Source: Nanobdellota archaeon (GTDB lineage Archaea; Nanobdellota; Nanobdellia; Pacearchaeales; GW2011-AR1). From it: 23,690 nucleotides of DNA. How positions within the stretch are numbered: position 1 is the first letter of the stretch; each line of letters opens with the position of its first letter. The notes under the pieces were generated by a model. It was not told where the DNA came from, did not search any database, and saw only the letters and a list, made by a program, of their open reading frames with translations. The stretch lies in contig JAHIHG010000066.1 of NCBI GenBank assembly GCA_018898425.1, forward strand, positions 1 to 23,690. Direction: 5' to 3'. Positions 6,289-21,980 of this stretch are shown here, piece after piece. Made by a program: the position numbers and the translations under genes.

Positions 6289-9200
6289 TTAAAAAAATTC
6301 ACTAAGAGGTTTTTGCTTCTCCAATTCTTTCCCAAAAATACTCTCAATATATCTTTTTACAAGTTCAAGATTTTGCTGTACATATGGTGAAAGGTCATAT
6401 TTTTTTGCTAAATCCAATGCAGGTTCTAGATATTTTTTAATTCCTCCTTCATGAATTGTAAAAATTAATTTCCCATTGCATTTAGGACAAGTTCCTTTTA
6501 AGGGAGGTCTTCTTATTATTTCATTACAAGCAACACACCTAAATTCCTGCATTGAAAATTTTCTTAAATTACCTCTCAAATCCCTAATAAAATGTCTTTC
6601 AATTACAAGTGTTGCTGTTGCAGTAGTATCTGCTGCCCTTATTCTTTCAACAAGTTCCATCTGATGCTGAACCTTTTCCTGCATTGTGGCTAAAAGCTTA
6701 TAAGAAGAGCAAGGAACCCCGTTATTAAAATCTGTTGTGTCATGAGTAAACCCTGCCCCAATAAAAGGATTTTCTCCTTTTCTTAAAATCTCTTTAACAT
6801 TATGTATTTTTAATTTTGAAGAATGTTCTTTTTTTTCAGCAAGTTCATACAATTCCAAAGGATATTCATAAACAAATTCAAAATCAAGTATCTGATCATC
6901 AACTTCTCCTGCATCTATTTTAGCATTCAAAACTAAAGGAGCATCTTGTGTTCCTCCCCTGTGACTTGGCAAAAATTCTCGTGAAAAATTAAGCAAAACA
7001 TCTCCTAAAAGCATAATAGCTGCCTCATCTCCATCACACCTCGCATTTATAATTTGTTCCCCCCATAAAACATTTTTATCCTCTTCACTCTCCCATTCCA
7101 CTTCAAAACAATATGAAGGAATTTTTTCTTTAAAAAAAACAACTTCTTTAATTATATCTACAAAAATATCATTCTCTTTTTCTAAACTAAAAAATTTATG
7201 ATTATATTTAATTTTTCTTTTTCTGCAATTTTTAAATTCAACATTTTTTATTAAAGCCAATTTTCTTTTATTCGCCGGATTTAAAATTTTAACTATTCCA
7301 TAAAAATCTTCTCCACTATAAACAAGATGCTGAAGAATATGCTTTTTTGGTTCCTTATTAAGCTCTTTATATCTTTCTAAAACCTTTTTTCCAGGGAGTC
7401 GCTCATTAGTTTTGCTAAATCTTCCAAATAATCCGAATTTACAACCTAATAAAGAAATGCCATCAAGAAGCTTCCTGCTAACAGAATAAAAACAGATAAA
7501 TTTTCTTTTACCATATACAATAGTCCCATCACCATCAAAATAACAAGATAAATAAGCCCTTACTTTTTTTTCAGAAACATTAAAAATAATGTTTGGAACT
7601 CTTTTCTCATAAGCACCACCACCAGCATCAAAACAATATTTAAATAAATAATAAACAAGTTTATTGCAAATAGTGATTTTAGTTTTATCCTCGCCAAAAC
7701 TAGGAATTAATCCAAAAGCACCTTTGATTGAAGATTCCAATTTTCTCCTTTGCTCTTTATCTATAATCCTAAAACAAATTTGTGACACAGTTTTTGTCTG
7801 CCTAGAATGCCCTTCAGCAGAATAATAACCCAAAACATTCATTAAATCCTCACCAACCTTAAACATTAAATCCCATTTTTTATTATTAAAAATAGTTCTT
7901 ATCTTTGCTGTTTTGGGGATGTCTTGCCACTTCATCAAACCATGATCAATAAATTTAAGCACATGATTTAAAGGAACTAATTTATACCAATCAGATAAAT
8001 TATTAAAATCATTATTAATATTAAACAATTTAATAAATTTAGATATGCCTACTTTTTTTACTAATTTCTTAAAAAATTCTTTGGCATCAACAACTCTTAC
8101 TTTAAATAATTCTTTTTCAGGAAGATTCTCTGATAAAAGTTTTGGAAGAAAAACCTCTTCAATTAAATTACTCTTAACATCAAATTTATTAATTAAAGCT
8201 ATTCTGTCTCCTTTTTTTATTTCGCCTGCTTTTTTTACTTGAAAATTATTTTTTTTATCAAGATAAATAAATTTGTGCCTTGGGGTCATAACTTGTTCTC
8301 TTCCACTAGAAGTCTTTATCTTAACCCATTTTTCAGGCGGAGCTCCTTTAATAAAATATTTAATCTTTTTTTTCTTCAACTTCTTGCTTACAGGATCAAC
8401 CCCAAATGCATAAAGCTCTTTATCTAAATCAACCCTAATAGTACCATAAGAATCAATCTTTCTTGTCTTATGTCCCTTCTCAATTAAATTTTCAACATAA
8501 TTTCCTATTGCCTCATTTTTAACTTCTCCATTATCAGAATAAATAAAATTTGTCATAGGATAAACACAATCTCTTCTAATAGCTGCATGCATATATGGGC
8601 TGGCAAACAAACCCAAAGTATTTGAAAAACCAATAAATCTGCAAATAACTCCTGCACAATTATGAGGAGCCATACAAACACCTAATTGCCCCACTAAATC
8701 TTCTCTTTTTTTAACATTATAAAAAGATTTTAATTTATAAAAATTTACAAGCAAATCATCAACAAAATTACAAATATTCATAAAAACATCTTCTCCTTTC
8801 TCATCTATTGTTTGTGAAAAATTTGGAATAAGAACATCATGAGGCATTAACTCTAAAATTTGTTCTTCATTAACAAGCTCCTTTCCATGAATATCTTTAT
8901 CATAACCTAATTCTTTTAATTTTTTCACACTCGTAAAAATTTCTTTTGGTTTAAAACACACCAAGGGTAATTCAGTTGCATCAAATCTTATTGTTCCATC
9001 TTTATTTACTTGCAAATTATGTTTTGCTCTTAAAACTCCTTTTGAAAGATTTTCAAGAGCATGATTTGTTGAAGAAGTTGTTCTAATTCCTTTAATCAAA
9101 AGAGGAGATTCAGATTTAATTATATTTAATTTTTGAATAGCTTTGTCAAAATAATGCATTATATCTAAATCCTGAACACAATATTGCGTTCCTTCTTCTT

Positions 9201-11286
9201 TTTCTTCATTAACTCTTTTAAAAGATTTTTCCTTATTTTTATAAAAATAATATTTTTTCCTGCATTTTCCCCCACAATCTTCGCAACAAGGATAAATAGT
9301 TTCTTTCTTGCATTTTTCACAATAATAAAGAGGAAACAAGCTTCTTACTTTCCCCTCTTCACATGCAGCCTGCACACTCCTCAATCTTCCTCCTTCTTTT
9401 CCAATAGGAAATAAAACATTCGGGCTTCCTGCTAATTTTCTTAATTTTGCTTTTTCAGGCCTACCCATTCTTGTTCCAATAAAATCTCCTGCTTTGTCTT
9501 TTATTTCAAATTCTGAAAAAGAATTTATGATTTCTAAAATATCTTTATTTAAATCAAATGTTTCTTTGATAACAGAATTTTTAAGAGAAAAATCTGTATT
9601 ATTTAACAAATTTAAATTCAATCCAAGATTAGCCAACAAAGATTTACTATTTTCTTTATTTAAAACAACATTTTCAATACTAACCTGATGTTCAATACCT
9701 AATAACTCCAAAGCTCTTTTACCTAATTTAAATTTTTCTTGTTCTAGTTTGTTAAAAGGAAAAATTATCCTCCTGTCTCTTATTACAGAGTGATGTAACC
9801 AATCAATAAAATTTAAAAATTGCTCTTTAGAAATTTCAGTCCAGTAAAAAATAAAATTTGGATGCAAAGGAATTTTAAATTTCTGACTTAATTCAACTGC
9901 TTTTTCAAAATCAACATTAAAATAATCTATTTCATTTTCTATTTCCTTAGATTTTGTTCTTAAATTAAGAGCCCACCATTCCTCAACATAACCTGGTTTA
10001 ATCAAAGTTGCATTTCTATTTGCCAAATCGCTAAAAGGAAACAAAATATCCCCTAAATAAATAATTTCTTCAATATCTGGATAAATTTGTTTAGCTTCTT
10101 CTTTTGTTTTTATTTTTTTTACACTTCCGCTAATTAATTTCACAATAGGTCCTTCAATAGAATCGCAAGAAGTAGTTACACACCCTTTAGTTGGTTTTTC
10201 TATTTTTAATTGAGTTCCTATTGCAATAAATCCATCGGTAATAGCCATTGTAGCAGGATGAATAGAGGCAGCACTAAAACCTGACACCCTACTCCTACCA
10301 TACCTAAATCTAAAGCCTCCTGAACAAGAAGGATGCCCAAAAACAGGCCTTCCAGCAACTAAATCCTTTATATAAGTTGGAGAAGCATCTGCTTTTCCTT
10401 TTTCTCTTTTTTCATGTAATTTAATATAATCTTCTAAAAAATCAAAACCTGTTGTTTTAATTCCATTTTTTTTAACACCTGCCAATAGTCTAAATCCTTT
10501 AGCAGCTTTTTGAGCTAATCCTTCTGCTAAAATCAAACAAAAACCACTTCTAAGAAAATTAGTATTAACTCTCTCAAGATTTTTATAATTAGAAACCTCT
10601 AGTTTTTCAGAAGCATCTCCTGCAACCTGGATAGGAATATGCCTTGCTAAAAAAAGTGTTTCCTCTTCTGTAGGCATATATTGCAAATTTGTAATTCTAT
10701 CATGAAAATCCCGTAATTCTGCATAAGTTCTTTTTATCTCTTCTTCAGTTGCATCATATTTTGCATAACCAAACAATTCCCTTAGATAATCTATGAGCAT
10801 TAGCACAACACAAGAAGCAGTAGTTCCAGCACTTCTAATTGGTCCTGAAAAACAAGCAATAAAATAGTCTTTTCCTTCTCTTGTTTTACCTAATTTTAAT
10901 TCAGTAAAGCCTTCAATTGGAGAAGAAACAACTCCTAAAGTAACATATGCAAAACCAATTCTTATTCCTGCATCAATTGCCTGCAATAAAGTTTCAAACC
11001 CGCAAAATTTTTGTTTAGCCACCTCTTCTGCAATCTTAAAAGCCACAGTTGTATCTAATTTCCCATATTCTTTTTCTAATTCAAGAATTCTTTTTGCAAT
11101 TCCAGAATTCATCATTTGAGGATAAATAGTTGAAATCAATCCCACAACTTTTTCAGCCATAGACATTGCCAAAGGAATTTCAACCTTATCAACAGGATCT
11201 AGTCCCTTGCTTCTTGCCTCTTCAGCAAGCTCATAGACATTTCTAACTTCTTTTTCAATATTTTTAAAATATAATTCTGTGTTCAT
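6289..11286 (-). CDS. polC: DNA polymerase II (PolD) large subunit DP2, interrupted by an intein
   Basis: 1665-aa ORF.
- Active-site region: PYMHAAIRRD[intein]CDGDEAAIMLLGDVLLNFS, compared with remembered HAAKRRNCDGDED...LLNFS.
- Internal Zn finger: CEKC...CCEDCGGKC.
- C-terminal Zn finger: CVACN...CPKCNGK.
- The host protein without the intein is 1155 aa. Confidence 0.93.
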   Translation of the reverse strand: MNTELYFKNIEKEVRNVYELAEEARSKGLDPVDKVEIPLAMSMAEKVVGLISTIYPQMMNSGIAKRILELEKEYGKLDTTVAFKIAEEVAKQKFCGFETLLQAIDAGIRIGFAYVTLGVVSSPIEGFTELKLGKTREGKDYFIACFSGPIRSAGTTASCVVLMLIDYLRELFGYAKYDATEEEIKRTYAELRDFHDRITNLQYMPTEEETLFLARHIPIQVAGDASEKLEVSNYKNLERVNTNFLRSGFCLILAEGLAQKAAKGFRLLAGVKKNGIKTTGFDFLEDYIKLHEKREKGKADASPTYIKDLVAGRPVFGHPSCSGGFRFRYGRSRVSGFSAASIHPATMAITDGFIAIGTQLKIEKPTKGCVTTSCDSIEGPIVKLISGSVKKIKTKEEAKQIYPDIEEIIYLGDILFPFSDLANRNATLIKPGYVEEWWALNLRTKSKEIENEIDYFNVDFEKAVELSQKFKIPLHPNFIFYWTEISKEQFLNFIDWLHHSVIRDRRIIFPFNKLEQEKFKLGKRALELLGIEHQVSIENVVLNKENSKSLLANLGLNLNLLNNTDFSLKNSVIKETFDLNKDILEIINSFSEFEIKDKAGDFIGTRMGRPEKAKLRKLAGSPNVLFPIGKEGGRLRSVQAACEEGKVRSLFPLYYCEKCKKETIYPCCEDCGGKCRKKYYFYKNKEKSFKRVNEEKEEGTQYCVQDLDIMHYFDKAIQKLNIIKSESPLLIKGIRTTSSTNHALENLSKGVLRAKHNLQVNKDGTIRFDATELPLVCFKPKEIFTSVKKLKELGYDKDIHGKELVNEEQILELMPHDVLIPNFSQTIDEKGEDVFMNICNFVDDLLVNFYKLKSFYNVKKREDLVGQLGVCMAPHNCAGVICRFIGFSNTLGLFASPYMHAAIRRDCVYPMTNFIYSDNGEVKNEAIGNYVENLIEKGHKTRKIDSYGTIRVDLDKELYAFGVDPVSKKLKKKKIKYFIKGAPPEKWVKIKTSSGREQVMTPRHKFIYLDKKNNFQVKKAGEIKKGDRIALINKFDVKSNLIEEVFLPKLLSENLPEKELFKVRVVDAKEFFKKLVKKVGISKFIKLFNINNDFNNLSDWYKLVPLNHVLKFIDHGLMKWQDIPKTAKIRTIFNNKKWDLMFKVGEDLMNVLGYYSAEGHSRQTKTVSQICFRIIDKEQRRKLESSIKGAFGLIPSFGEDKTKITICNKLVYYLFKYCFDAGGGAYEKRVPNIIFNVSEKKVRAYLSCYFDGDGTIVYGKRKFICFYSVSRKLLDGISLLGCKFGLFGRFSKTNERLPGKKVLERYKELNKEPKKHILQHLVYSGEDFYGIVKILNPANKRKLALIKNVEFKNCRKRKIKYNHKFFSLEKENDIFVDIIKEVVFFKEKIPSYCFEVEWESEEDKNVLWGEQIINARCDGDEAAIMLLGDVLLNFSREFLPSHRGGTQDAPLVLNAKIDAGEVDDQILDFEFVYEYPLELYELAEKKEHSSKLKIHNVKEILRKGENPFIGAGFTHDTTDFNNGVPCSSYKLLATMQEKVQHQMELVERIRAADTTATATLVIERHFIRDLRGNLRKFSMQEFRCVACNEIIRRPPLKGTCPKCNGKLIFTIHEGGIKKYLEPALDLAKKYDLSPYVQQNLELVKRYIESIFGKELEKQKPLSEFF
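7039..8568 (-). mobile_element. 510-aa intein with a LAGLIDADG homing-endonuclease domain, inside PolD DP2
   Basis: - Cys1 (tgt, plus-strand aca at 8566-8568) begins CVYPMTNF.
- Block B TxxH: MTPRHKF.
- LAGLIDADG motifs: LMNVLGYYSAEGHS and RAYLSCYFDGDGTI.
- Block F/G: SYCFEVEW...NVLWGEQIINAR, followed by Cys+1 (7036-7038).
- The C-terminal blocks align with the remembered P. abyssi PolII intein end (NVIINENIVTHQ|C). Confidence 0.85.
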
Positions 11287-11296
11287 TTTTCTATTT

Positions 11297-11863
11297 TCAT
11301 CCTAATAACAACATTGCTGCCTCATATTTTAGTTTAATTAACTTTCTTGATTCTTCTAATTCAATTTGATTCCATTTATTTTGCAATTTATTTTTGATCG
11401 AATTTCTTGCTTCTTCTAAAGATTTCTTCTCATACACAAGAGTTGTAAGAAATTGTTTTGAGATGTTATTAAAAGCATCTAAACTATCTGCTTCTGCGAT
11501 TATCTTGGCCTCAATAAATTCTCTTTGATTATTTTCTTCTTGTGAACCCCTATGATTTAAAATACAAATTTTAATTTTTTCAATTTTTTCCTGTGGATAA
11601 TTTAATTCATTTAATTTTTCTTCAGCTATTTTTGCTCCAGTTATATGGTGGTTTTCTCTTCCAGAAATAATAGAGCCAATGTCATGAAGCCATGCAGCAA
11701 TTTCAACTAATTCAATATCAGCATTTAATTCTTCAGCCAATTTTTTTGCAATACTATGCATTGAAATAAAATGATATTTATATGCCTCAGGATAATTAGC
11801 ATTAGGCTTTTTACACTCTTCTTCTACAAATTTTCTAACCATTTCCACAATATTTTTTTCCAT
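11297..11863 (-). CDS. HD-domain metal-dependent phosphohydrolase
   Basis: 188 aa. Contains H...AAWLHDIGS (HD motif) and a later NHRG histidine. Its start overlaps the DP1 stop (TAATG). It sits between the two PolD subunit genes and ends in TGA. Confidence 0.75.
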   Translation of the reverse strand: MEKNIVEMVRKFVEEECKKPNANYPEAYKYHFISMHSIAKKLAEELNADIELVEIAAWLHDIGSIISGRENHHITGAKIAEEKLNELNYPQEKIEKIKICILNHRGSQEENNQREFIEAKIIAEADSLDAFNNISKQFLTTLVYEKKSLEEARNSIKNKLQNKWNQIELEESRKLIKLKYEAAMLLLG

Positions 11864-12483
11864 TATTCAAAATCCAAAATTTTTATTTCTCTTGTTTTTA
11901 AATTAAACATAGGCACCTTGCAATGGTCTGGTGTATTTCCAAATTTTTCCTGATAAGGAGTCATAGCTTCCCAACAAGAAGTTGAAATAACTAAAATATT
12001 ATTATAATACGCAACAGCGCTTTTGTGCGTATGAGCTGCAACAAAAATATCTGGAATGTCTTTTATTATCAAGGGATCTTTTTCAAGAGGAAAATACTGG
12101 ATAGATTTATGTGTTGGAGCTAAATGTCTATTTTTTAAAAGATATTTCATAATTTCCTCTGGGCAATTCATAGCTTTTTTTAAAATTAATTTAGAAACAT
12201 TATTTGCATAATAAGGAAAAGAAAACCCATGATAAGTCAAAATATCAAAACCTGAAAACCCCTCAATTGCTCCAATATTAACTTTGCAAGGATTAGTTGT
12301 TAAAATAACATTTTTCATATCATATAATGGCCAGGCATATTTTTCATCAAAAAGTGGTTGAGGCTCAATTAATCTAACACAATCATGATTTCCAGGAGAA
12401 ATTATTATAATAATATCTTCTCTTATTTGTTTTAATAACTCAACAAGCCCTAAAAATTGCTCTTCAAGGTCTTTTATTTCCAA
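11863..12483 (-). CDS. polB: PolD small subunit DP1, C-terminal fragment (calcineurin/Mre11-like phosphoesterase motifs III-V)
   Basis: Contains IIISPGNHD (the GNHD motif), TYHGF and AAHTHKS. DP1-like sequence continues in frame upstream to 12528 (DIITGIGNYPNQEKD), directly after the TGA at 12529-12531. The TTG start in the ORF track is probably not a real start. Confidence 0.8.
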   Translation of the reverse strand: MEIKDLEEQFLGLVELLKQIREDIIIIISPGNHDCVRLIEPQPLFDEKYAWPLYDMKNVILTTNPCKVNIGAIEGFSGFDILTYHGFSFPYYANNVSKLILKKAMNCPEEIMKYLLKNRHLAPTHKSIQYFPLEKDPLIIKDIPDIFVAAHTHKSAVAYYNNILVISTSCWEAMTPYQEKFGNTPDHCKVPMFNLKTREIKILDFE

Positions 12484-12528
12484 ATCTTTCTCTTGATTTG
12501 GATAATTTCCAATGCCTGTAATAATGTC

Positions 12529-13539
12529 TCAAACAATAAATAAATATTTTATTTTTTTTACTTCAGGGGTATTTGGAACCTTTCCATTTAAATAATCAAT
12601 AAATTTCAAAAAATTCTCCCTTAAAAATAACTTACTTCCAAAATGCAAATCCCCTATAAAAAGAATAGATTCATCAACCAAAGATTTTTTTCTTTCTAAA
12701 ATCATTGCTTCAGGAAAAATAACATCATTTACAAAAACAATCTCTTTATTACCAGAGCAATTAATACCAATAACAGAATCTAAAGTTATCTCTTCAGCTT
12801 TTTCATAAAGTTCTTTTTTAGAACTATTCACTAAAACTTTTATTTTTCCTGTTAAATCTTCTAATTCAAACAAAATGTTTTTATTTTTAGTTATTTTTTT
12901 ATCAGAAACAATGCCAATTATAGAAATGTTTTGCCTATTTTCTGAAATTTTATTAATTGAAACTAAATTTTTTAAACAAGAGTTTTCCTGTAAAATATTT
13001 TTTAATTCAACAAACCTATTTTTAAAATAACTAACAAAATTTTTTACTTCTAATTTTTTTCCAACAAAAGGTGTTGCAGACATAATTTTAACACTTTCAA
13101 AAGAATTTTGTTTTTTCCCAATATCAAAATTCATCGTTTTTTGGGTTTTTTTAATCTCTTTATCAATAGTGTCATTTATAGAATTGTTTATAGAATTGTT
13201 TATAGAATTATCTGTAACCTCTCCCTTACCAAAATCTTCTACAAATTTATTCACAATTTCTTTTTCTTTTATTATTTCTATGCTTAAACCAAGTTTAATT
13301 TTTAATTTATCTATTGTTTTCTTATTTTTATTAGGAATATTTAAAAAAATTTGTTCAACTTTCTCCTTGTTTTTATTTAAAATTTTTTTAGTTATGATTC
13401 TCTGGCTTGTTTGTTTTGTTATTTGTTCTATAAAAATCTTAATAGACTCTATGTCTTCAAACTCATTAAATAACTTTAAAAGATCATTATCTAATAAAAA
13501 TCCTTTATGTGAGCAAAAACTAAGTATTTCTTTATTCAT
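12529..13539 (-). CDS. polB: PolD small subunit DP1, N-terminal fragment (N-terminal domain, OB-fold region, phosphoesterase motif I), ending at an in-frame TGA
   Basis: - ILFIGDLHFGS is motif I (DxH).
- KYLFIV is followed by TGA exactly where the Gly of motif II (GDxxDG) is expected.
- The two fragments plus the linker give a collinear DP1 of about 558 aa.
- The start lies 5 nt downstream of the cdc6 stop. Confidence 0.85.
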   Translation of the reverse strand: MNKEILSFCSHKGFLLDNDLLKLFNEFEDIESIKIFIEQITKQTSQRIITKKILNKNKEKVEQIFLNIPNKNKKTIDKLKIKLGLSIEIIKEKEIVNKFVEDFGKGEVTDNSINNSINNSINDTIDKEIKKTQKTMNFDIGKKQNSFESVKIMSATPFVGKKLEVKNFVSYFKNRFVELKNILQENSCLKNLVSINKISENRQNISIIGIVSDKKITKNKNILFELEDLTGKIKVLVNSSKKELYEKAEEITLDSVIGINCSGNKEIVFVNDVIFPEAMILERKKSLVDESILFIGDLHFGSKLFLRENFLKFIDYLNGKVPNTPEVKKIKYLFIV

Positions 13540-13544
13540 TTTAT

Positions 13545-14756
13545 TTAGGTATAATTTAAAGAATCTTCAATTATTTTTTTTGCCTGTTCAATTATACCTT
13601 TAGTGATTGCTAATTTTATCTCCCTCATTCTTCCACCTCTTCCTTTTGAAATAACTTTTACATTAATTATTCCAAGCATATCAAACTCTTGAATAATATC
13701 ACTTATTCTTCTTTGTGTTAAAATTTCTGATTTATTTTTAAGACATAATTCTTGATAATTATTATAAACATCTCCTGTAAAAATAGGCTCATTTTTTTGA
13801 TTTTCATTTAATTTTATTATAGAATGTAAAACAAGTTGAAATTGTTTAGGCTCTGATTTAATAATATCTAAAATTTTATCTCTTTCTAATTTACTATTAG
13901 CCTCATCTATATGCCTTACATAAATTTTTTTAGAAGAATCTCTTTCAGCTAATTCTCCTGCAACCCTTAGTAAATCCAGGGCTCTTCTTGCATCACCATG
14001 CTCCCTTGCAGCAAAAGCAGCACATTTAGCAATAACCCCTTCTTGAACAACATTTTCCTTAAAAACCTCATCAGACCTTTTTTTTAAAATTTCCTGTAAT
14101 TGTAAGGCATTATAAGGTGGAAAAACTATTTCTTCTTCTGAAAGTGAGCTTCTAACTCTTGGATCAATATTTTCTAAAAAAGTTAAATCATTACTTATTC
14201 CAACAATACAAATCTGAGTTTTAGAAAGTTCAGAATTTAATCTAGTTAAATTATATAAAAAATCATTAGAAATTTTCTTAACAGTCTGGTCTATTTCATC
14301 AAAAATTAAAACAATTAACTGCTTTTCAGAATCTATAATTTCAATAAATTTGCTATAAACTGCTTGAGTAGGCAAACCAGTAGAAGGAACCTCTCCACCT
14401 AATTTTTTAATAAGTTCTGCTAAAATCCTATATTCAGTATCAGAAATTTTTTTTAATTTACAGTTTAAATATTTTATTTTTAATTTAAAATCATTATTTT
14501 CATTAACCCTTTTTAATAATTTATCCCTAACATATTTTATTGAAAGTGTTTTACCAGTACCTGTTTTTCCATAAAGAAACAAATTACTAGATTTTTCACC
14601 TCTTAACACAGGAGCAAGTATTGAAGCAATTTGTTTAATTTGTTCACTTCTATGAGGAATATCCTCTGGTTGATAATTATTTTGTAAAAGAGATTTATTT
14701 TTAAAAATCAAATTTTTATCAAAAGATTCAAATATATTGTCTAATTCTGTTCCCAT
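13545..14756 (-). CDS. cdc6: Orc1/Cdc6 replication initiator (AAA+ with C-terminal winged helix)
   Basis: - Walker A: LYGKTGTGKT.
- Walker B: LIVLIFDEID.
- Sensor and winged-helix region: GDARRALDLLR, and ...RGGRMREIKL at the C-terminus.
- It lies immediately next to the ORB-containing intergenic region. Confidence 0.93.
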   Translation of the reverse strand: MGTELDNIFESFDKNLIFKNKSLLQNNYQPEDIPHRSEQIKQIASILAPVLRGEKSSNLFLYGKTGTGKTLSIKYVRDKLLKRVNENNDFKLKIKYLNCKLKKISDTEYRILAELIKKLGGEVPSTGLPTQAVYSKFIEIIDSEKQLIVLIFDEIDQTVKKISNDFLYNLTRLNSELSKTQICIVGISNDLTFLENIDPRVRSSLSEEEIVFPPYNALQLQEILKKRSDEVFKENVVQEGVIAKCAAFAAREHGDARRALDLLRVAGELAERDSSKKIYVRHIDEANSKLERDKILDIIKSEPKQFQLVLHSIIKLNENQKNEPIFTGDVYNNYQELCLKNKSEILTQRRISDIIQEFDMLGIINVKVISKGRGGRMREIKLAITKGIIEQAKKIIEDSLNYT

Positions 14757-14801: not shown

Positions 14802-14827
14802 ACACACACAGTGATTTCCTATGGAAA
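14802..14827 (+). repeat. ORB-like box 1
   Basis: acacacacagtgATTTCCTATGGAAa. Confidence 0.65.
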
Positions 14828-14901
14828 ATCTTTTAAATTTAAATCATTCGTCAATAAAAAATTAAGTTATTATATAAAGTCTTATAACTACTAAAAAAGA
14901 A

Positions 14902-14924
14902 AAACACCTAAATTTCCTATGGAA
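14902..14924 (+). repeat. ORB-like box 2
   Basis: aaacacctaaATTTCCTATGGAA. Confidence 0.6.
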
Positions 14925-15000
14925 TATGTTTTTTTATTTTTAAAATTCCTAATCCCTTAATACTTACTTTATTATCTTCTTTTGATTTTATACTCTTTTT

Positions 15001-15125
15001 TCTTTTTTATTATTATTATTATAATTATTATATACTATATTTTTTTATAATAATAATAATAATAATAATAAACTATATACTATATAATATATATAAATAT
15101 AAATTAAATATAAATTAAAAATTTC
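15001..15125. repeat. A/T-only duplex-unwinding-element candidate with inverted trinucleotide tracts
   Basis: (tta)n at about 15007-15030 and the complementary (taa)n at about 15046-15072, followed by tatata-type low complexity. Almost no G/C across the segment. Confidence 0.6.
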
Positions 15126-15145
15126 AAAAAATCCTTTTTAAATAC

Positions 15146-15174
15146 TTCCATACGAAATCAAAGGGTGAGTGTGT
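15146..15174 (-). repeat. ORB-like box 3 (inverted)
   Basis: The plus strand reads ttccatacgaaatcaaagggtgagtgtgt. The reverse complement is acacactcaccctttgATTTCGTATGGAA, facing boxes 1 and 2 across the A/T element. Confidence 0.6.
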
Positions 15175-15369
15175 TTTATTATTATATCTCTTTTTTATAA
15201 TTATTCTTCTTATTCTTATAATTATTAACATAATCAACGCATATTCTTTTTTTATAAGAATAATAAAGTAAAATTATTAAGAAATCTAAAATAACCTTTT
15301 GTAATATATACTTTTAAATCCATTTATTTTTACAGAAAAGTTTATAAAGAATTTACCTCTAAAATTAAT

Positions 15370-16593: not shown

Positions 16594-17316
16594 ATGGAAA
16601 ATATAAAAAAAGCTTTTAGTAAAGTAAAAGAAGATATGATCTCTTTGAATTATGAAATTAATTCTTTAAAAAAGAATATTATAGAAAACAGAGCAAAAAT
16701 GATAGAAATGTGTGAAATTCTTAAGCAATTAAATGAAAAAATAATTCTTTTATCTGATAAAAAAGAAACTAAAGAGGACTTAGACACTTCGACAGACAGA
16801 CAGATAATTCAGACAGACAGACAAATACTTTCGACACATAATGAGCTTTTTAACCCTTTAAAACACCAAAATATACCTATTTCCATTGGAAATGAAGGGG
16901 CTTCGACAGACAGACAGACAGACACTTCGACAGACAGACAGACACAAAATATGCCTAAAAATGAAGAAAAAAGCTATATAAGAGATGCTTTAGATATTAT
17001 AAATTCCCTAGATGATTTAAAAAAAGAAATGAGGTTTAAATTTAAAAGACTTACAGAGCAGGAATTTTTAGTTTTTTCAACAATTTATCAATTAGAAGAA
17101 ACTATCAATAAGGAAGATTCTTTGAATTACAGGGTTCTTTCTGAAAAACTTAATTTAACTGAAAGTTCTATTAGAGATTATGTCGGAAGATTAATAAAAA
17201 AAGGTATTCCCGTCGAGAAAAAAAAATTAAATAATAAAAACATAATTCTTTTTTTATCAAAAGATTTTAAAAAAATGATTTCTTTACCTACTCTTTTACA
17301 ATTAAGAGATTTATAA
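16594..17316 (+). CDS. coiled-coil / STDRQ-repeat / C-terminal winged-helix DNA-binding protein
   Basis: - N-terminal heptad-like segment: FSKVKEDMISLNYEINSLKKNI.
- Central (S)TDRQ repeats, encoded by (GACA)n DNA.
- C-terminal wHTH: LTEQEFLVFSTIYQLEE...LSEKLNLTESSIRDYVGRLIKKGIPV. Confidence 0.6.
   Translation: MENIKKAFSKVKEDMISLNYEINSLKKNIIENRAKMIEMCEILKQLNEKIILLSDKKETKEDLDTSTDRQIIQTDRQILSTHNELFNPLKHQNIPISIGNEGASTDRQTDTSTDRQTQNMPKNEEKSYIRDALDIINSLDDLKKEMRFKFKRLTEQEFLVFSTIYQLEETINKEDSLNYRVLSEKLNLTESSIRDYVGRLIKKGIPVEKKKLNNKNIILFLSKDFKKMISLPTLLQLRDL
16786..16944 (+). repeat. tetranucleotide (GACA)n tracts inside the CDS
   Basis: gaca x3.5 at 16791-16804, agac x3 at 16811-16822, gaca x5 at 16905-16924 and gaca x4 at 16929-16944. 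Three of these are preceded by cttc. Confidence 0.85.
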
Positions 17317-17381: not shown

Positions 17382-17408
17382 AAATATTTTATCGACGATA
17401 AAATATTT
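17382..17408. promoter_or_regulatory. 27-nt near-perfect palindrome (13-nt arms, 1-nt centre) between convergent wHTH genes
   Basis: aaatattttatcg-a-cgataaaatattt. Related TCGACGATAAAA-type copies occur at 17957-17970, 18174-18190 (inverted) and 18377-18388 (partial). Confidence 0.5.
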
Positions 17409-17524
17409 TTTAACTTAATTTTTAATTCTCTATATTTTTCTTTTTATCTTTAATTCTCACATTTTCCCTATTAAATGTAAAAATATGTTTAACTCTCACT
17501 TTTAGTGTTTTAATACGGTCTTTT

Positions 17525-18136
17525 TTAGTCTTTTTTAGTCTTTTTTCTTAACTTAACACTCACTTTTGGCTTTTTAAGCATCTGTTCCTTTACACTTTCA
17601 GGTATAAAAATCCTTTTTTTACCATTTTTCTCTATTTTCTCTTGAATTAAACCCTCACTTTTCTGTTTTATACTATTTATTTGGCCTCTTATAGTAGATC
17701 TCTCTTTCCCCAGTACAGCAGCTAAATCATCATAGCTAAGCTTCATATCACTGTTTAACAAGATCCATAAAATAGCTCGTTCAGTTATAGAAAATTGCTC
17801 TAATTTTGGTGTTTGGACAGCTGTTTGGACAGCTGTTTGGACAGCATAAACAGCTGTTTGTTTATTAAACAGCTGTTTAGGTGTTTTAAACACGCTGTTG
17901 GGTTTTAAGTCATTCATAATTGAAAATATATTTTTTAATCCTTCTATCTCATTTTGTATCGACGATAAAACCTCTTTTATCTCTTCTACTTCTTTTTTTT
18001 GCATATTTTTTTCAGAATCAAGGTGTTTAATCCACCCGCTTACAGCAGTTATATCTTTTTTTACAGATTCAAAACTTGTTTTTGTATCGTCTTTTAACTT
18101 TTCAATCTCTTTTTTTCTTTTAAACAAACCAAACAT
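17525..18136 (-). CDS. coiled-coil / TAVQ-repeat / C-terminal winged-helix DNA-binding protein (same architecture as 16594..17316)
   Basis: - N-terminal coiled coil: FESVKKDITAVSGWIKHLDSEK...EIEGLKNI.
- Central repeat: TAVYAVQTAVQTAVQT.
- C-terminal wHTH: ITERAILWILLNSDMKLSYDDLAAVLGKERSTIRGQINSIKQKSEGLI. Confidence 0.6.
   Translation of the reverse strand: MFGLFKRKKEIEKLKDDTKTSFESVKKDITAVSGWIKHLDSEKNMQKKEVEEIKEVLSSIQNEIEGLKNIFSIMNDLKPNSVFKTPKQLFNKQTAVYAVQTAVQTAVQTPKLEQFSITERAILWILLNSDMKLSYDDLAAVLGKERSTIRGQINSIKQKSEGLIQEKIEKNGKKRIFIPESVKEQMLKKPKVSVKLRKKTKKD
17811..17875. repeat. 12-nt tandem repeat (gtttggacagct x3) plus further AAACAGCTGTTT palindromes inside the CDS
   Basis: CAGCTG occurs at 17818, 17830, 17851 and 17870. 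A degenerate cacgctgtt lies at 17891. Confidence 0.85.
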
Positions 18137-18240
18137 GATTAATAATAAATAAAAGCACTTTAAAAACTTTTTGTTTTTCGTCGATAAAAATTGATTTTGT
18201 AATTTTTTAAAAAAATAAAAAAGATGTGTCGAAGACCCTG

Positions 18241-18256
18241 GATTTCATATGGAAAA
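18241..18256 (+). repeat. ORB-like box in the accessory-region intergenic space
   Basis: GATTTCATATGGAAAA, compared with oriC box 1 GATTTCCTATGGAAAA: 15 of 16 identical by eye. Confidence 0.55.
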
Positions 18257-18258
18257 AC

Positions 18259-18413
18259 CAGCTGTTTAAACAAAAAAATACTGACAAACAGCCTGTTTAA
18301 ACAGCCTTAAACAGCTGCCCAAGAGATAAATAATTACAAACAGCTGTTTAAAGTTTAATAGAAATTTAATTTTCTCCCTCGATAAAACTAACAAACAGCC
18401 TGTTTAAACAGCT
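18259..18413. repeat. iteron field: five copies of AAACAGC(C)TG(TTTAAAC)
   Basis: - cagctgtttaaaca at 18259-18272
- acaaacagcctgtttaaacagcc at 18284-18306
- aaacagctg at 18309-18317
- acaaacagctgtttaaag at 18336-18353
- acaaacagcctgtttaaacagct at 18391-18413. Confidence 0.8.
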
Positions 18414-18443
18414 TTAAGATAAAGAAGAACAATAAAATTATAT

Positions 18444-18465
18444 AACTAAGTTAACCTAAGTGCAC
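18444..18465 (+). repeat. 22-nt direct repeat R1
   Basis: aactaagttaacctaagtgcac. Confidence 0.85.
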
Positions 18466-18823: not shown

Positions 18824-18839
18824 TCTTTTGTATCTAAAG

Positions 18840-18861
18840 AACTAAGCTAACCTAAGTGCAT
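18840..18861 (+). repeat. 22-nt direct repeat R2
   Basis: aactaagctaacctaagtgcat; 396 nt from R1. Confidence 0.85.
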
Positions 18862-18939: not shown

Positions 18940-19266
18940 ATGGATATTCGGGATTATAAGGGAAAACCCCTAAAAATTAATAGCCTTTATTTAAATACAT
19001 CTTCAAGGAGTGTTGAATATCTTACAGTTTTCCCATTACATTGCCCAGAAGGCATATGCAAAGTTACTGAGTTATATGAAGATAAAAACAAAGAGAAAAT
19101 TCTTAAAATAACCTATGAAATAAATAATTCTTCATTATGTTTTAAAGGAGATTCAGCATATGATTTTGGGGCACAATTATTACTTTTAAATCAGAGAGAC
19201 AAAGAAATTTTAATCAAAGATAGAAAAAGAAAATTATCTTTTTTAGAAGGTAGTGAATTAAGCTAA
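18940..19266 (+). CDS. hypothetical protein (108 aa)
   Basis: Clean ORF between R2 and R3. Its last codons and its TAA stop lie inside R3 (gaa tta agc TAA cct aag). No recognisable family. Confidence 0.45.
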   Translation: MDIRDYKGKPLKINSLYLNTSSRSVEYLTVFPLHCPEGICKVTELYEDKNKEKILKITYEINNSSLCFKGDSAYDFGAQLLLLNQRDKEILIKDRKRKLSFLEGSELS

Positions 19267-19277
19267 CCTAAGTGCAC
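19256..19277 (+). repeat. 22-nt direct repeat R3
   Basis: aattaagctaacctaagtgcac; 416 nt from R2. Confidence 0.85.
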
Positions 19278-19457: not shown

Positions 19458-19934
19458 ATGACTATATTTTTTATATCTGGAGCAGAAGGTGTTGGGAAGA
19501 CAACAATATTAGGACATTTAATAAGAGAATTGCCGGATAAAGATATTCATGATTTTGATGAGATTGGAGTTCCAAAAAATCCTAAATTAAGCTGGAGATA
19601 TAAAACAACAAAACATTGGCTAAAAATAGCTAAGAATAATGAAAAAATTGGAAAGGATACAATTATTGTGGGATTAAGTTTTCCAAGCGAAATTATAAAA
19701 TTTTCAAAGAAAAAGAATTTTCATTTTTGTTTGTTTGATATTAGTATAAACGAGCGAGAAAAAAGATTAAGAAAAAGAAAATCTACAAAAGGAGTAATAG
19801 ATGATTTAGAACAATTAAAACAACTAAGGGAAGAATTTAAAAAATTAAAATCAAAAAAGATTATTAATATTTCTCATTTAACTCCTAAAGAAATTTCTTC
19901 AAAATTAATTAAATGGATTAATAGCTTAAAATGA
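19458..19934 (+). CDS. P-loop NTPase / small kinase-like protein
   Basis: Walker A ISGAEGVGKTT at the N-terminus. Its size and layout resemble nucleotide-kinase-like AAA proteins. Its TGA stop overlaps the recombinase ATG (ATGA). Confidence 0.65.
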   Translation: MTIFFISGAEGVGKTTILGHLIRELPDKDIHDFDEIGVPKNPKLSWRYKTTKHWLKIAKNNEKIGKDTIIVGLSFPSEIIKFSKKKNFHFCLFDISINEREKRLRKRKSTKGVIDDLEQLKQLREEFKKLKSKKIINISHLTPKEISSKLIKWINSLK

Positions 19935-20695
19935 CCCCAAACAAACCATTAGCAGCAATCTATGTCCGAGTTTCAACTCAAGACCAAGCTCAGCATGGAT
20001 ATTCCTTAAAAGCCCAACAAGAAGCACTAGAAAATTATTCTAAAGCATTGGGATATGAAATATTCAAAATATATAAGGATGAAGGAAAATCTGCAAAAAA
20101 TATGAACCGCCCACAAATGATTAAAATGTTAGAAGATGCTGAAAGCAAAAAGTTTTCAGCTATTTTTATTTATAAGCTTGATAGATTTTCAAGGAGTGTT
20201 GTGGATGCAATATTAACAATTGATAAATTAAAAAAATGGGGGATTGATTTTGTTTCAATGCAGGATAAGATAGAAACTGCATCTGCCACAGGAAAGTTAA
20301 TGTTCCATATGATTTCTGCCTTTGCAGAATTTGAAAGAAATATGATCGGAGACCGAACAAAATTTGGGATGGAAAGAAAAGTAAAAGAAGGAGGGTTTAT
20401 TACAAAAGCCCCAAAAGGATACAAACTTGTAGATAAGCAACTTGTTCCTAATGAGGATTCTGAAAATTTATCTAAAATTTTTGAAAAATTCTTTAATCAA
20501 AGCATAAGTTTAACACAATTAGCTAAAGAAAATAACATGACTGCTTCTGGTATGAAAAAATTACTCCAAAATACAACATATATAGGAAAAGTTAAATTCG
20601 CACATGAAGAGTCTCAAGGAAATCATCAGCCTATCTTATCTAAACAGCTGTTTGAACAGGTTCAAGATAAAATTAAACAGCTTGGATGGAGTTAA
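19931..20695 (+). CDS. serine recombinase (resolvase catalytic domain plus recombinase domain; no zinc-ribbon/coiled-coil C-terminus)
   Basis: - Catalytic domain: AAIYVRVSTQDQ (catalytic Ser motif), DEGKSAK, KLDRFSRS, AEFERNMIGDRTKFG.
- Recombinase-domain pattern: Y.GK..F.....QGNHQPILS..LF..VQ.
- It is only 254 aa long. Confidence 0.9.
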   Translation: MTPNKPLAAIYVRVSTQDQAQHGYSLKAQQEALENYSKALGYEIFKIYKDEGKSAKNMNRPQMIKMLEDAESKKFSAIFIYKLDRFSRSVVDAILTIDKLKKWGIDFVSMQDKIETASATGKLMFHMISAFAEFERNMIGDRTKFGMERKVKEGGFITKAPKGYKLVDKQLVPNEDSENLSKIFEKFFNQSISLTQLAKENNMTASGMKKLLQNTTYIGKVKFAHEESQGNHQPILSKQLFEQVQDKIKQLGWS

Positions 20696-21431: not shown

Positions 21432-21980
21432 ATGAAAACTAAATGTATAAAATGCGGATTTGAGTCAGAGGAAAATTTAGAGAAATTCAGAGTTCCTATA
21501 TGCAATATTTGTTTTAGATTTGCTCCAAATAGTGAAGATAAATTTAAAGAATATGTTTCTGAAAAAATAGAAAGTTTATGCTTGGATTCTTTTAGAAAAT
21601 TTTCTGAACTAGGAAATCCTCAAAAAAAAGCTATGATTAAAAAAGCCTCACAGGGAAATTTTATGTCAAGAGCAGCTTTTGGATATAAAATTCAAAATAA
21701 AAAATTAATTCTTGCTGAAAATTTTAGAGAAATTCAGGAAATTTTTGAAGAATTTTTAAATCAAAACATAAGTTTAACACAATTAGCCAAAAAACACAAT
21801 TTTTCTGTTAACGGGTTAAAAAAAATACTGACAAATTTTACTTATTTAGGTAAAATAAGATTTAATAATCAAATACATCAAGGGAATCATCAACCTCTTG
21901 TCTCTTCAACTTTGTTTAATCATGTACAAAACAAGCTTGAAAGATTAAAATCAAATAAAAATTGCAAAATAGAGGAATAA
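21432..21980 (+). CDS. Zn-ribbon protein carrying a recombinase domain paralogous to 19931..20695 but lacking the serine-recombinase catalytic domain
   Basis: - N-terminus: CIKCGF...CNIC (CxxC..CxxC).
- C-terminus: FLNQNISLTQLAKKHNFSVNGLKKILTNFTYLGKIRFNNQIHQGNHQPLVSSTLFNHVQNKL aligns with FFNQSISLTQLAKENNMTASGMKKLLQNTTYIGKVKFAHEESQGNHQPILSKQLFEQVQDKI.
- DNA 21759-21787 matches 20495-20523 at 28 of 29 positions. Confidence 0.65.
   Translation: MKTKCIKCGFESEENLEKFRVPICNICFRFAPNSEDKFKEYVSEKIESLCLDSFRKFSELGNPQKKAMIKKASQGNFMSRAAFGYKIQNKKLILAENFREIQEIFEEFLNQNISLTQLAKKHNFSVNGLKKILTNFTYLGKIRFNNQIHQGNHQPLVSSTLFNHVQNKLERLKSNKNCKIEE

Follow-up and report, generated by a model that had tools for sequence, protein, structure and literature searches.

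Conserved palindrome arrays upstream of and within a winged-helix gene near a probable chromosomal origin in Woesearchaeota and Pacearchaeota

Introduction

MarR-like winged helix-turn-helix (wHTH) proteins commonly autoregulate. In a different setting, Lin & Grossman reportedly described in 1998 a parS site inside the parB (spo0J) gene. The origin of phage lambda, ori-lambda, consists of four 18-bp iterons and an AT-rich stretch, all within gene O, and is bound by the O protein (PMC3349717). Among archaea, the ucm motif lies within the DNA unwinding element (DUE), while UBP, a nucleoid protein of high abundance, has over 300 sites; whether analogous proteins exist in other archaeal lineages is a question raised by the same study (PMC12141716). 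Here we analyse a 23,690-nt stretch of AT-rich archaeal DNA (the window; contig JAHIHG010000066.1 of assembly GCA_018898425.1, a Nanobdellota archaeon of the Pacearchaeales) in which a short palindromic repeat, M1, is clustered both upstream of and inside a small wHTH gene, wH203. Comparison of orthologous loci indicates that the in-gene repeats are conserved as DNA, and we propose that wH203 itself may bind them as part of a nucleoprotein module close to the origin of replication.

Results

M1 half-sites form two clusters at the wH203 gene

The features on which the argument turns are as follows.

17525..18136, minus strand: wH203 gene, with a weak HTH_11 match; N-terminal helix, linker and C-terminal wHTH
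17806..17899, minus strand: in-gene M1 array of about six units AAACAG[C/G](N)TGTT[T/C], its DNA conserved in 77 loci; holds a 12-nt x3 tandem, two perfect AAACAGCTGTTT and AAACACGCTGTT
18256..18413, no strand assigned: upstream M1 array, with AACCAGCTGTTTAAAC, two 23-mers ACAAACAGCCTGTTTAAACAGC[C/T], TTAAACAGCTG and AAACAGCTGTTT
18286-18303, on the gene strand and 167 nt before the ATG: 18-mer core TGTTTAAACAGGCTGTTT, with a second copy at 18393-18410
18159..18190, minus strand: putative wH203 promoter, with TATA-like TTTTTAAA at 18159-18166 ending ~22-24 nt before the ATG

The window has 10 copies of the hexamer CAGCTG, where 1.97 would be expected, and seven of the ten lie within 17818-18346; for AACAGC the count is 27 compared with an expectation of 7.1, and 15 copies fall within 17820-18412. 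The recurring unit is better described as the 6-bp half-site AAACAS than as a CAGCTG palindrome. Twenty half-sites (AAACA[GC]/[GC]TGTTT) fall in the 611 nt from 17805 to 18415, ten of them coding and ten intergenic, giving a density of 32.7/kb compared with 1.73/kb in the rest of the window (18.9-fold, Poisson P=4.7e-19). They make up both palindromes, centred on 2 or 3 nt, and phased direct repeats. The exact 12-mer AAACAGCTGTTT has three copies at the locus (17848, 17867 and 18338). A fourth perfect copy, the only one off the locus, lies at 20642-20653 in the 3' end of a serine recombinase gene, where it encodes KQLF and is probably there by chance.

An earlier reading of this DNA, made from the sequence only, had counted about nine copies of the palindrome, which is fair if near-copies and the two expanded forms AAACAGCCTGTTT are included. 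It had also seen a 12-nt x3 tandem, which we find as TGTTTGGACAGC at 17810-17845, and two 23-mers at 18284-18306 and 18391-18413, which do differ at the last base only; the in-gene copies encode the TAVQ-type repeat that it described (peptide KQLFNKQTAVYAVQTAVQTAVQTP). Its picture of one array running continuously from intergenic into coding DNA does not hold: the repeats form two clusters, 17806-17899 in the gene and 18256-18413 upstream, and the ~355 nt between them comprise the 5' third of wH203 and its putative promoter.

Both clusters are conserved at a chromosomal locus

For comparison, 80 orthologous genome loci from different species were retrieved, with titles naming Woesearchaeota, Pacearchaeota or Nanoarchaeota; motifs were scanned in 77 of these genome loci, and the position of the upstream core in 97 loci. 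Gene order is near-invariant across the 80. The ribosomal protein genes L18e-L13-S9, a gene for a recombinase-domain protein and variable small genes are followed by wH203 (forward), then by wH240, wH90, p141 and a PRC-barrel gene (all reverse), and then by oriC and the Cdc6, DP1 and DP2 genes (all forward). wH240 adjoins wH203 in 80/80 loci and synteny with oriC/cdc6 is seen in all 80, with cdc6 inside the retrieved flank in 60. Because gene order is essentially invariant over the 80 loci, a plasmid or viral element, one of the settings that the sequence-only reading had named, is excluded, and a scan of viral contigs with the 18-mer core gave no matches; the locus is a chromosomal core region. 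A mobile-element origin was rejected on the same two grounds.

Nearly every locus examined has both M1 clusters, and the upstream array is found at essentially every one. Overall, the motif is retained to the letter at well over a hundred loci of related species. Across the 77 scanned loci, the 400 nt ahead of the start codon contain 104 copies of the octamer ACAGSTGT and the interval +200..+400 contains 270, compared with ~1-3 in each of the other 200-nt bins. Half-site density is 22.5/kb upstream and 56/kb in the linker-encoding DNA, against 1.9/kb across 860 kb of flanking DNA. Half-site copy number varies among loci upstream (4-17) and is steadier in the gene (median 8).

The upstream array has a stereotyped layout. 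Towards the gene, two to four direct repeats STGTTTAAGG in 10-bp phase are followed by an inverted core, TGTTTAAACAG(G/C)CTGTTT, and 3' of this core come ~8 nt, a T6-8 run and GACAAACAS. The repeats are phased at 10 bp upstream and at 12 bp in the gene, and are adjoined by the T6-8 run, not by a DUE. The 18-mer core lies at a median of 174 nt upstream of the ATG (interquartile range 164-177) in 76/97 loci. In metagenomes it has at least 120 matches; among the matches listed, 79 lie upstream of a wH203 homologue, in the same orientation and with few exceptions at 146-198 nt, 19 lie at contig ends (several with syntenic neighbours) and 22 are in unrelated contigs, mostly GC-richer. That the metagenome matches listed lie almost only upstream of wH203 homologues argues that the 18-mer element is specific to the wH203 locus. 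Three AT-rich metagenome contigs (L082, L088 and L095) carry the core with no detectable wH203 homologue nearby; L095 has L13, L18e and S9. They could represent divergent lineages, or else the element may have a second context.

Between the upstream array and the start codon, a conserved block of TCGTCGA, an A-rich stretch and TTTTTAAA lies ~25-45 nt before the ATG, with (T)CGTCGAAAAACAAAAnATTTTTAAA at the same place in most loci; its position suggests the promoter of a leaderless mRNA. The nearest M1 site in the window is ~95 nt upstream of the TATA box, the upstream array spanning ~95-250 nt. In the divergent orthologues L134 and L161, M1 sites flank the TATA box.

The in-gene array is conserved as DNA rather than as peptide

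The AlphaFold model of wH203 has a long N-terminal helix (a coiled coil, residues 2-77), a linker at residues 78-110 with a predicted local distance difference test score (pLDDT) below 50, and a confident wHTH domain at 117-186. The M1 repeat region of the gene coincides exactly with this linker, encoding residues ~80-110 (NSVFKTPKQLFNKQTAVYAVQTAVQTAVQTP) between helix and wHTH. Although disorder is predicted for the linker segment, no other part of the wH203 gene is as conserved, and the linker DNA is nearly identical among species whose proteins are only ~70% identical.

Codon choice in the linker departs from that in the remainder of the gene. The linker Thr codons are ACA in 70/70, 73/74, 70/74, 70/75 and 72/73 orthologues, while ACA and ACT are about equally used in the rest of it. 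For Ala the codon is GCT in 53/53 and for Gly it is GGT in 47/47, against mixed usage outside the linker; Gln88 is CAG in 49/49, the remaining Gln codons being CAA; and Val is never GTA, a codon common in the rest of the gene. Pairwise synonymous codon identity is 0.87 over residues 83-112 compared with 0.62 elsewhere (Mann-Whitney P=4e-9). Further, the one motif is read in three frames within a single gene: as ACA AAC AGG GTG TTT (TNRVF), as AAA CAG STG TTT (KQ[LV]F) and as CAA ACA GST GTT (QT[AG]V, QT[AG]VY). The same motif is found in non-coding DNA in both orientations.

Because the linker codons are fixed, the motif is read in three frames, copies occur in non-coding DNA and the host segment is predicted to be disordered, the in-gene M1 repeat is supported by these comparisons as a DNA-level element, and the TAVQ peptide repeat is most plausibly a by-product of the DNA signal. 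The sequence-only reading had raised this same possibility. The codon conservation across ~75 orthologues and the three reading frames bear it out, as do the predicted disorder of the linker and the non-coding copies in both orientations, and the test it had named as able to overturn the idea, orthologues keeping the same peptide with different codons, left it standing, the linker codons being fixed.

Properties of the wH203 protein

wH203 has more than 3000 homologues at ~70-80% identity, and those with a named source are from Nanoarchaeota or an uncultured archaeon; the family is a small one (202 clusters at 50% identity). Pfam matches are limited to HTH_11 and HTH_29, both below gathering thresholds. 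The nearest folds found by Foldseek are MarR-family regulators among generic wHTH matches (weak, E~2e-3), and no PDB sequence matched the family profile at an E-value below 0.16. With a single MarR-like wHTH fold, wH203 does not qualify as a Rep-type initiator (WH1-WH2 or another Rep family). No ParB-family match was found in the Pfam scan, and the protein has no ParB or SegB features.

An internal promoter for a short isoform starting at Met74, formed by a second motif (M2, below) and a TATA-like box, was considered and dropped, as the box lies ~9 nt from the ATG compared with ~22-24 nt at the putative wH203 promoter.

The partner gene wH240 carries an origin recognition box

The arrays lie ~3 kb from, and outside, a region with the layout of an archaeal origin, in which origin recognition boxes (ORBs) flank a DUE. 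The relevant features are:

14803..15175, no strand assigned: probable oriC of canonical layout, with ORB1 (14803-31) and ORB2 (14904-30) facing ORB3 (15143-75) across a DUE at ~14990-15130
16594..17316, plus strand: wH240, the convergent partner gene (HTH_24, E 8.7e-6); coiled coil, repeat linker and wHTH
16880..16948, plus strand: canonical-looking ORB TTTCCATTGGAAATGAAGGGGCTTCGACA embedded in wH240, with (GACA)n encoding ISIGNEGASTDRQTD directly after it
16789-16830, plus strand: first GACA block in wH240
18227..18255, minus strand: ORB-like element TTTCCATATGAAATCCAGGGTCTTCGACA, abutting the upstream M1 array; present in ~10-12/77 loci

The spacer between cdc6 and the PRC-barrel gene is 614 nt long. 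Two ORB-like elements in it, TTTCCTATGGAAA at 14815 and 14913, are opposed by one in inverted orientation at ~15143-15175, and between them lies a nearly pure A+T DUE that is the GC minimum of the window (0.158). This layout recurs in other loci, and 14803-15175 is probably the chromosomal oriC. The M1 repeats are not ORBs, which in archaea consist of a dyad TTCCAnnGGAAA with a G-string, inverted around an AT-rich DUE beside orc1/cdc6. The ORB2-type consensus TTTCCATWAGAAATnnAGGTGTTTTTC holds an M1-like half-site, GGTGTTT.

wH240 has the same architecture as wH203. Its linker consensus, an ORB followed by (GACA)n, is ATTTCCACTGGAAATGAAGGGGTTCCAACAGACAGACAGAC; the (GACA)n tract, read in three frames, gives TDRQ. 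The wH240 orthologues have the ORB core in 85/91 cases, and synonymous identity there is 0.79-0.97, against 0.41-0.6 in the protein-conserved wHTH domain. The ORB-like element at 18227-18255 is an inverted partner of the wH240 ORB (83% complementary) and ends in TTCGACAC. Paralogy of wH203 and wH240 was considered and cannot be claimed, BLASTP between them giving E=0.34; only the architecture is common to both.

Taken with the M1 arrays, these comparisons show DNA elements that are locus-specific, origin-linked and under purifying selection, several of them in coding DNA.

A distant lineage has the same architecture with different repeats

More distant wH203 homologues (26-45% identity) keep the order coiled coil, linker, wHTH, and carry a different peptide repeat, ERVQSFNRSNQSFMNVQS. 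In three distant loci the linker repeat is an 8-nt tandem, GTTCAATC(G), together with TGAACGTTCA/GAACGCGTTC palindromes; the 8-nt repeat is read in all frames and is conserved at the DNA level. Here too an ORB is embedded in the convergent partner gene, with (CAAT)n or (ATTC)n after it, and the gene pair is still linked to a canonical cdc6-adjacent origin, ~6.5 kb away. In each lineage the repeat units of the two genes have a lineage-specific core in common: ACAG in the main clade and TCAA/TTCA in the distant one. Repeat type tracks the type of recognition helix (ST[ILV]RGQ or VTxRRH), this being an association over two clades only.

A model for M1, and its rivals

We propose, with a probability of roughly one half, that the M1 arrays are sites for wH203, the wHTH protein of the same gene, within a composite, origin-proximal nucleoprotein module. 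In this scheme the M1 clusters would be a conserved recognition element, in which AAACA(G/C) half-sites form palindromes around 2-3-nt centres and direct repeats with a 10-12-bp phase, and the element would be part of an origin-proximal two-gene module on Woesearchaeota and Pacearchaeota chromosomes. wH203 would dimerise or oligomerise via its N-terminal helix and occupy both the upstream array and the one in the coding DNA of its own flexible linker. Such occupancy could give cis-preferential loading and autogenous control, and a higher-order complex could then form next to oriC with Orc1/Cdc6 bound to the ORB embedded in wH240. The M1 sites flanking the TATA box in divergent orthologues and the MarR-like fold are hints of promoter control. 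We infer from sequence comparison both the identity of the binder and its role, whether in autoregulation, at the origin or in segregation. The three functions that the sequence-only reading had listed, as iterons, a centromere or an operator, are each compatible with what is observed.

More tentatively, and here we would sooner expect to be wrong than right, the two convergent coiled-coil/wHTH genes may constitute a 'self-encoding' module, each holding parts for origin function or segregation in the DNA of its disordered linker, with accessory initiation or partition factors loading in cis on sites inside their own genes and repeats co-evolving with recognition helices, in at least one distant lineage as well. 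A similarly tentative detail is the division of parts, in which one gene would hold an ORB and a lineage-specific tetranucleotide tract and the other a lineage-specific palindrome or iteron array.

Several points weigh against wH203 as the M1 binder in such a module. The binder could instead be wH240, wH90 or an unlinked factor. The coding A/G variant (GCT or GGT) tracks the upstream C/G variant (CTGTT or GTGTT) only weakly (0.25 versus 0.39), and an upstream array ~95-250 nt from the TATA box is atypical for an archaeal repressor site. In the distant lineage no matching upstream array was detected, so the clusters may not be one functional unit. The association of recognition helix with repeat type is confounded by phylogeny, there being two clades. 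Finally, the motif counts cover the loci and their flanks, so distant M1 sites in the genomes are possible.

The rival to which we give most room, though we hold it doubtful, is a purely transcriptional multi-site operator for wH203 or a neighbouring regulator, with proximity to oriC incidental. On this reading the upstream sites would act as an upstream activating sequence or as looping sites and the in-gene sites as a roadblock to elongation. An operator would fit the fixed distance from core to ATG, the near restriction of the 18-mer to wH203 among the matches listed, the M1 sites around the TATA box of divergent orthologues and the MarR-like fold; however, ~20 half-sites and their costly embedding in coding DNA go far beyond typical autoregulation, the partner gene has a bona fide ORB in the equivalent linker position, and two deep lineages have retained the linkage to cdc6/oriC in spite of inserted genes. 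A centromere-like partition site, with the palindrome clusters as parS and wH203 as the centromere-binding protein, is unlikely: the sites are indeed palindromic and clustered near oriC, with copies within the presumed binder's own gene, and a coiled coil could bridge DNA, but no ParA/SegA-type ATPase is conserved next to them (the P-loop protein NTPase158 is not syntenic in the 80 loci) and wH203 lacks ParB or SegB features.

Explanations at other levels fare worse than wH203 binding at M1. That the repeat acts as RNA, through linker mRNA structure or a site for a protein or small RNA controlling translation or stability, we consider very unlikely. The linker RNA of the window folds well (-34.2 kcal/mol, z=-6.1) and the distant lineage has in-gene repeats only, but RNAalifold over 38 orthologues gave a consensus of only -2.73 kcal/mol with a covariation term of 0.02 and no conserved structure, and Rfam returned no match; the CAGGTG units have no CACCTG partners, and non-coding DNA has the motif too, in either orientation and in direct repeats with a 10-bp phase. 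RNA structure was rejected as the main explanation on the unconserved fold and missing covariation. Still less credible is a role as recombination or accessory sites, like res or hix, for a serine recombinase and a cassette-like array of another repeat (Box A, below). Recombinase genes do recur upstream (serine in the main clade, tyrosine in the distant lineage) and the sites are palindromes with short variable centres, but a catalytic recombinase is present in ~15/80 loci against universal M1 arrays, and 10-12-bp phasing with many copies is unlike crossover sites. We give least credence of all to a repeat selected as peptide, in which QT[AG]V would be functional and the likeness of its DNA to the intergenic copies a coincidence or codon bias. 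QT[AG]V is nearly invariant in the main clade, but its codons are fixed far beyond the gene's own usage, M1 is read in three frames over a region predicted to be disordered, and the 8-nt repeat of the distant lineage and the 4-nt repeats of the partner gene are likewise read through all frames.

Accessory motifs around wH203

Two further motifs occur in and around the gene.

17957..17972, minus strand: M2 palindrome TTATCGTCGATA, inside the wH203 coding sequence (L57 S58 S59 I60)
17385-17405: M2 copy in the 3' spacer
18174-18190, on the gene strand: M2 palindrome-like TTTTCGTCGATAAAAA, immediately 5' of the putative transcription factor B recognition element (BRE) and TATA box
17450..17665, minus strand: M3, AAAAGTGAG(R)GTTAA, four copies in one orientation; present in 76/77 loci
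17450-65 and 17489-503, minus strand: non-coding M3 copies in the 3' spacer, just past the stop codon
17552-69 (KVSVK) and 17647-65 (QKSEG), minus strand: coding M3 copies in the 3' region of wH203, in two frames

M2 has the form TTATCGWCGATAA, TTATCG(A/T)CGATAA. Its two Ser codons are the rare TCG TCG in 66/71 and 51/57 orthologues despite AT-rich usage, and M2 is possibly the site of a second regulator. M3 takes the form AAAAGTGAGRGTTAA, with the codons AGT GAG / AAA GTG AGA GTT fixed; it resembles the G-string flank of oriC ORB3, CAAAGGGTGAGTGTGT.

A separate repeat, Box A (AACTAAGYTAACCTAAGTGCA, 20-25 nt), has 2-5 copies per locus in 75/77 loci scanned. In the window it lies at 18443-18465, 18839-18860 and 19255-19276, each copy ahead of a small open reading frame (ORF; TM94, p108 and NTPase158). 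It is confined to the interval that separates wH203 from the recombinase/p182 genes, in a zone 250-2000 nt upstream of wH203 (L001-L080), almost always in one orientation and at a spacing of ~350-650 nt. It has the look of a cassette array, or of an upstream box common to several genes.

Other genes of the window

The remaining features of the window are these.

6289-11286: PolD DP2, with a large insertion
13545..14756, minus strand: orc1/cdc6 initiator gene (Cdc6_C 2.9e-26, Cdc6_lid 8.9e-24)
11863-13539: PolD DP1, present as two ORFs

The window also encodes a PRC-barrel protein, three small wHTH proteins and the ribosomal proteins L18e, L13 and S9. DP2 is 1665 aa long and its internal insertion has LAGLIDADG-like motifs (e.g. 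YFDGDGTIV); it is presumably an intein. The two DP1 ORFs lie 45 nt apart and encode 336 aa (12529-13539) and 206 aa (11863-12483, TTG start), while DP1 of the distant-lineage locus L204 is a single gene of 485 aa; the split could be genuine, or it could reflect a frameshift, a pseudogene or an error of sequencing. Recombinases recur upstream of the module (19931-20695 and 21432-21980 in the window). In the main clade a serine recombinase is present in ~15/80 loci and a protein with a Zn-ribbon and Recombinase domain, lacking the catalytic domain, in 46/80; in the distant lineage (L201-L204) a tyrosine integrase lies upstream of the module in 4/4 loci. Scans of the window with Rfam (gathering threshold) and for tRNAs gave no matches.

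Comparison with known systems

Full-text literature searches on ORBs, origins or replication control in DPANN/Woesearchaeota returned no papers, and we found no prior description of this system; the two-gene module as a whole has a substantial chance of being undescribed so far. No plasmid or viral homologues were found. The arrangement would be of a known kind, with iteron- or operator-like cis sites embedded in the gene of their putative binder; membership in the named families fails on their defining features.

Among regulators, MarR/Lrs14-type autoregulators are the closest in fold and have palindromic sites, commonly at their own promoter; unlike these, wH203 has a coiled coil of 75 residues and a repeat linker in addition, and its locus has ~20 half-sites, including those in the gene. 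The archaeal accessory factors that act beside Orc1/Cdc6 sites (ORB/Orc1-1, WhiP at Sulfolobus oriC3, ucm/UBP) likewise pair a lineage-restricted small DNA-binding protein with a motif. In contrast to ucm, M1 is locus-specific, outside the DUE and in coding DNA, and wH203 has no homology to UBP or WhiP. If wH203 is the M1 binder, the module would provide candidate lineage-specific accessory factors for origin function or segregation, with their cis sites, in uncultured, genome-reduced DPANN archaea. The embedded ORB and the 18-mer core offer handles for heterologous biochemistry with Orc1/Cdc6 and the wHTH proteins, and for origin mapping from metagenomic coverage.

The phased direct repeats and the inverted repeat upstream of a winged-helix gene recall iteron plasmids with Rep proteins, in which direct-repeat iterons accompany an inverted-repeat operator at the rep promoter, and a dual role in replication and autoregulation is plausible by that likeness; wH203 is however not a Rep (WH1-WH2), the period is 10-12 bp instead of ~22 bp and the locus is chromosomal. 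The parS/ParB system shares with M1 its palindromic, origin-proximal sites, one set of them within the coding sequence of the presumed binder. It differs in that wH203 has neither a ParB fold nor a CTPase domain, no ParA is adjacent, and the sites are clustered arrays rather than dispersed 16-mers.

The nearest analogue in logic appears to be ori-lambda, where repeats also lie in coding DNA between two domains of a DNA-binding protein, the peptide mirrors the repeats and the arrangement has been linked to cis action. The wH203 locus differs in lying on an archaeal chromosome whose canonical ORB-DUE-ORB origin is a separate element 3 kb away, in having 6-bp half-sites or 12-bp palindromes instead of 18-bp iterons, and in having no distinct AT-rich block beside the in-gene array; the O protein binds the iterons of its own gene, whereas self-binding by wH203 is putative. 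If it does occur, the locus would be a clean natural case of an apparently invariant peptide repeat dictated by an overlapping DNA signal, and would extend the principle of binding sites inside the binder's own gene from lambda O and parB to an archaeal chromosome.

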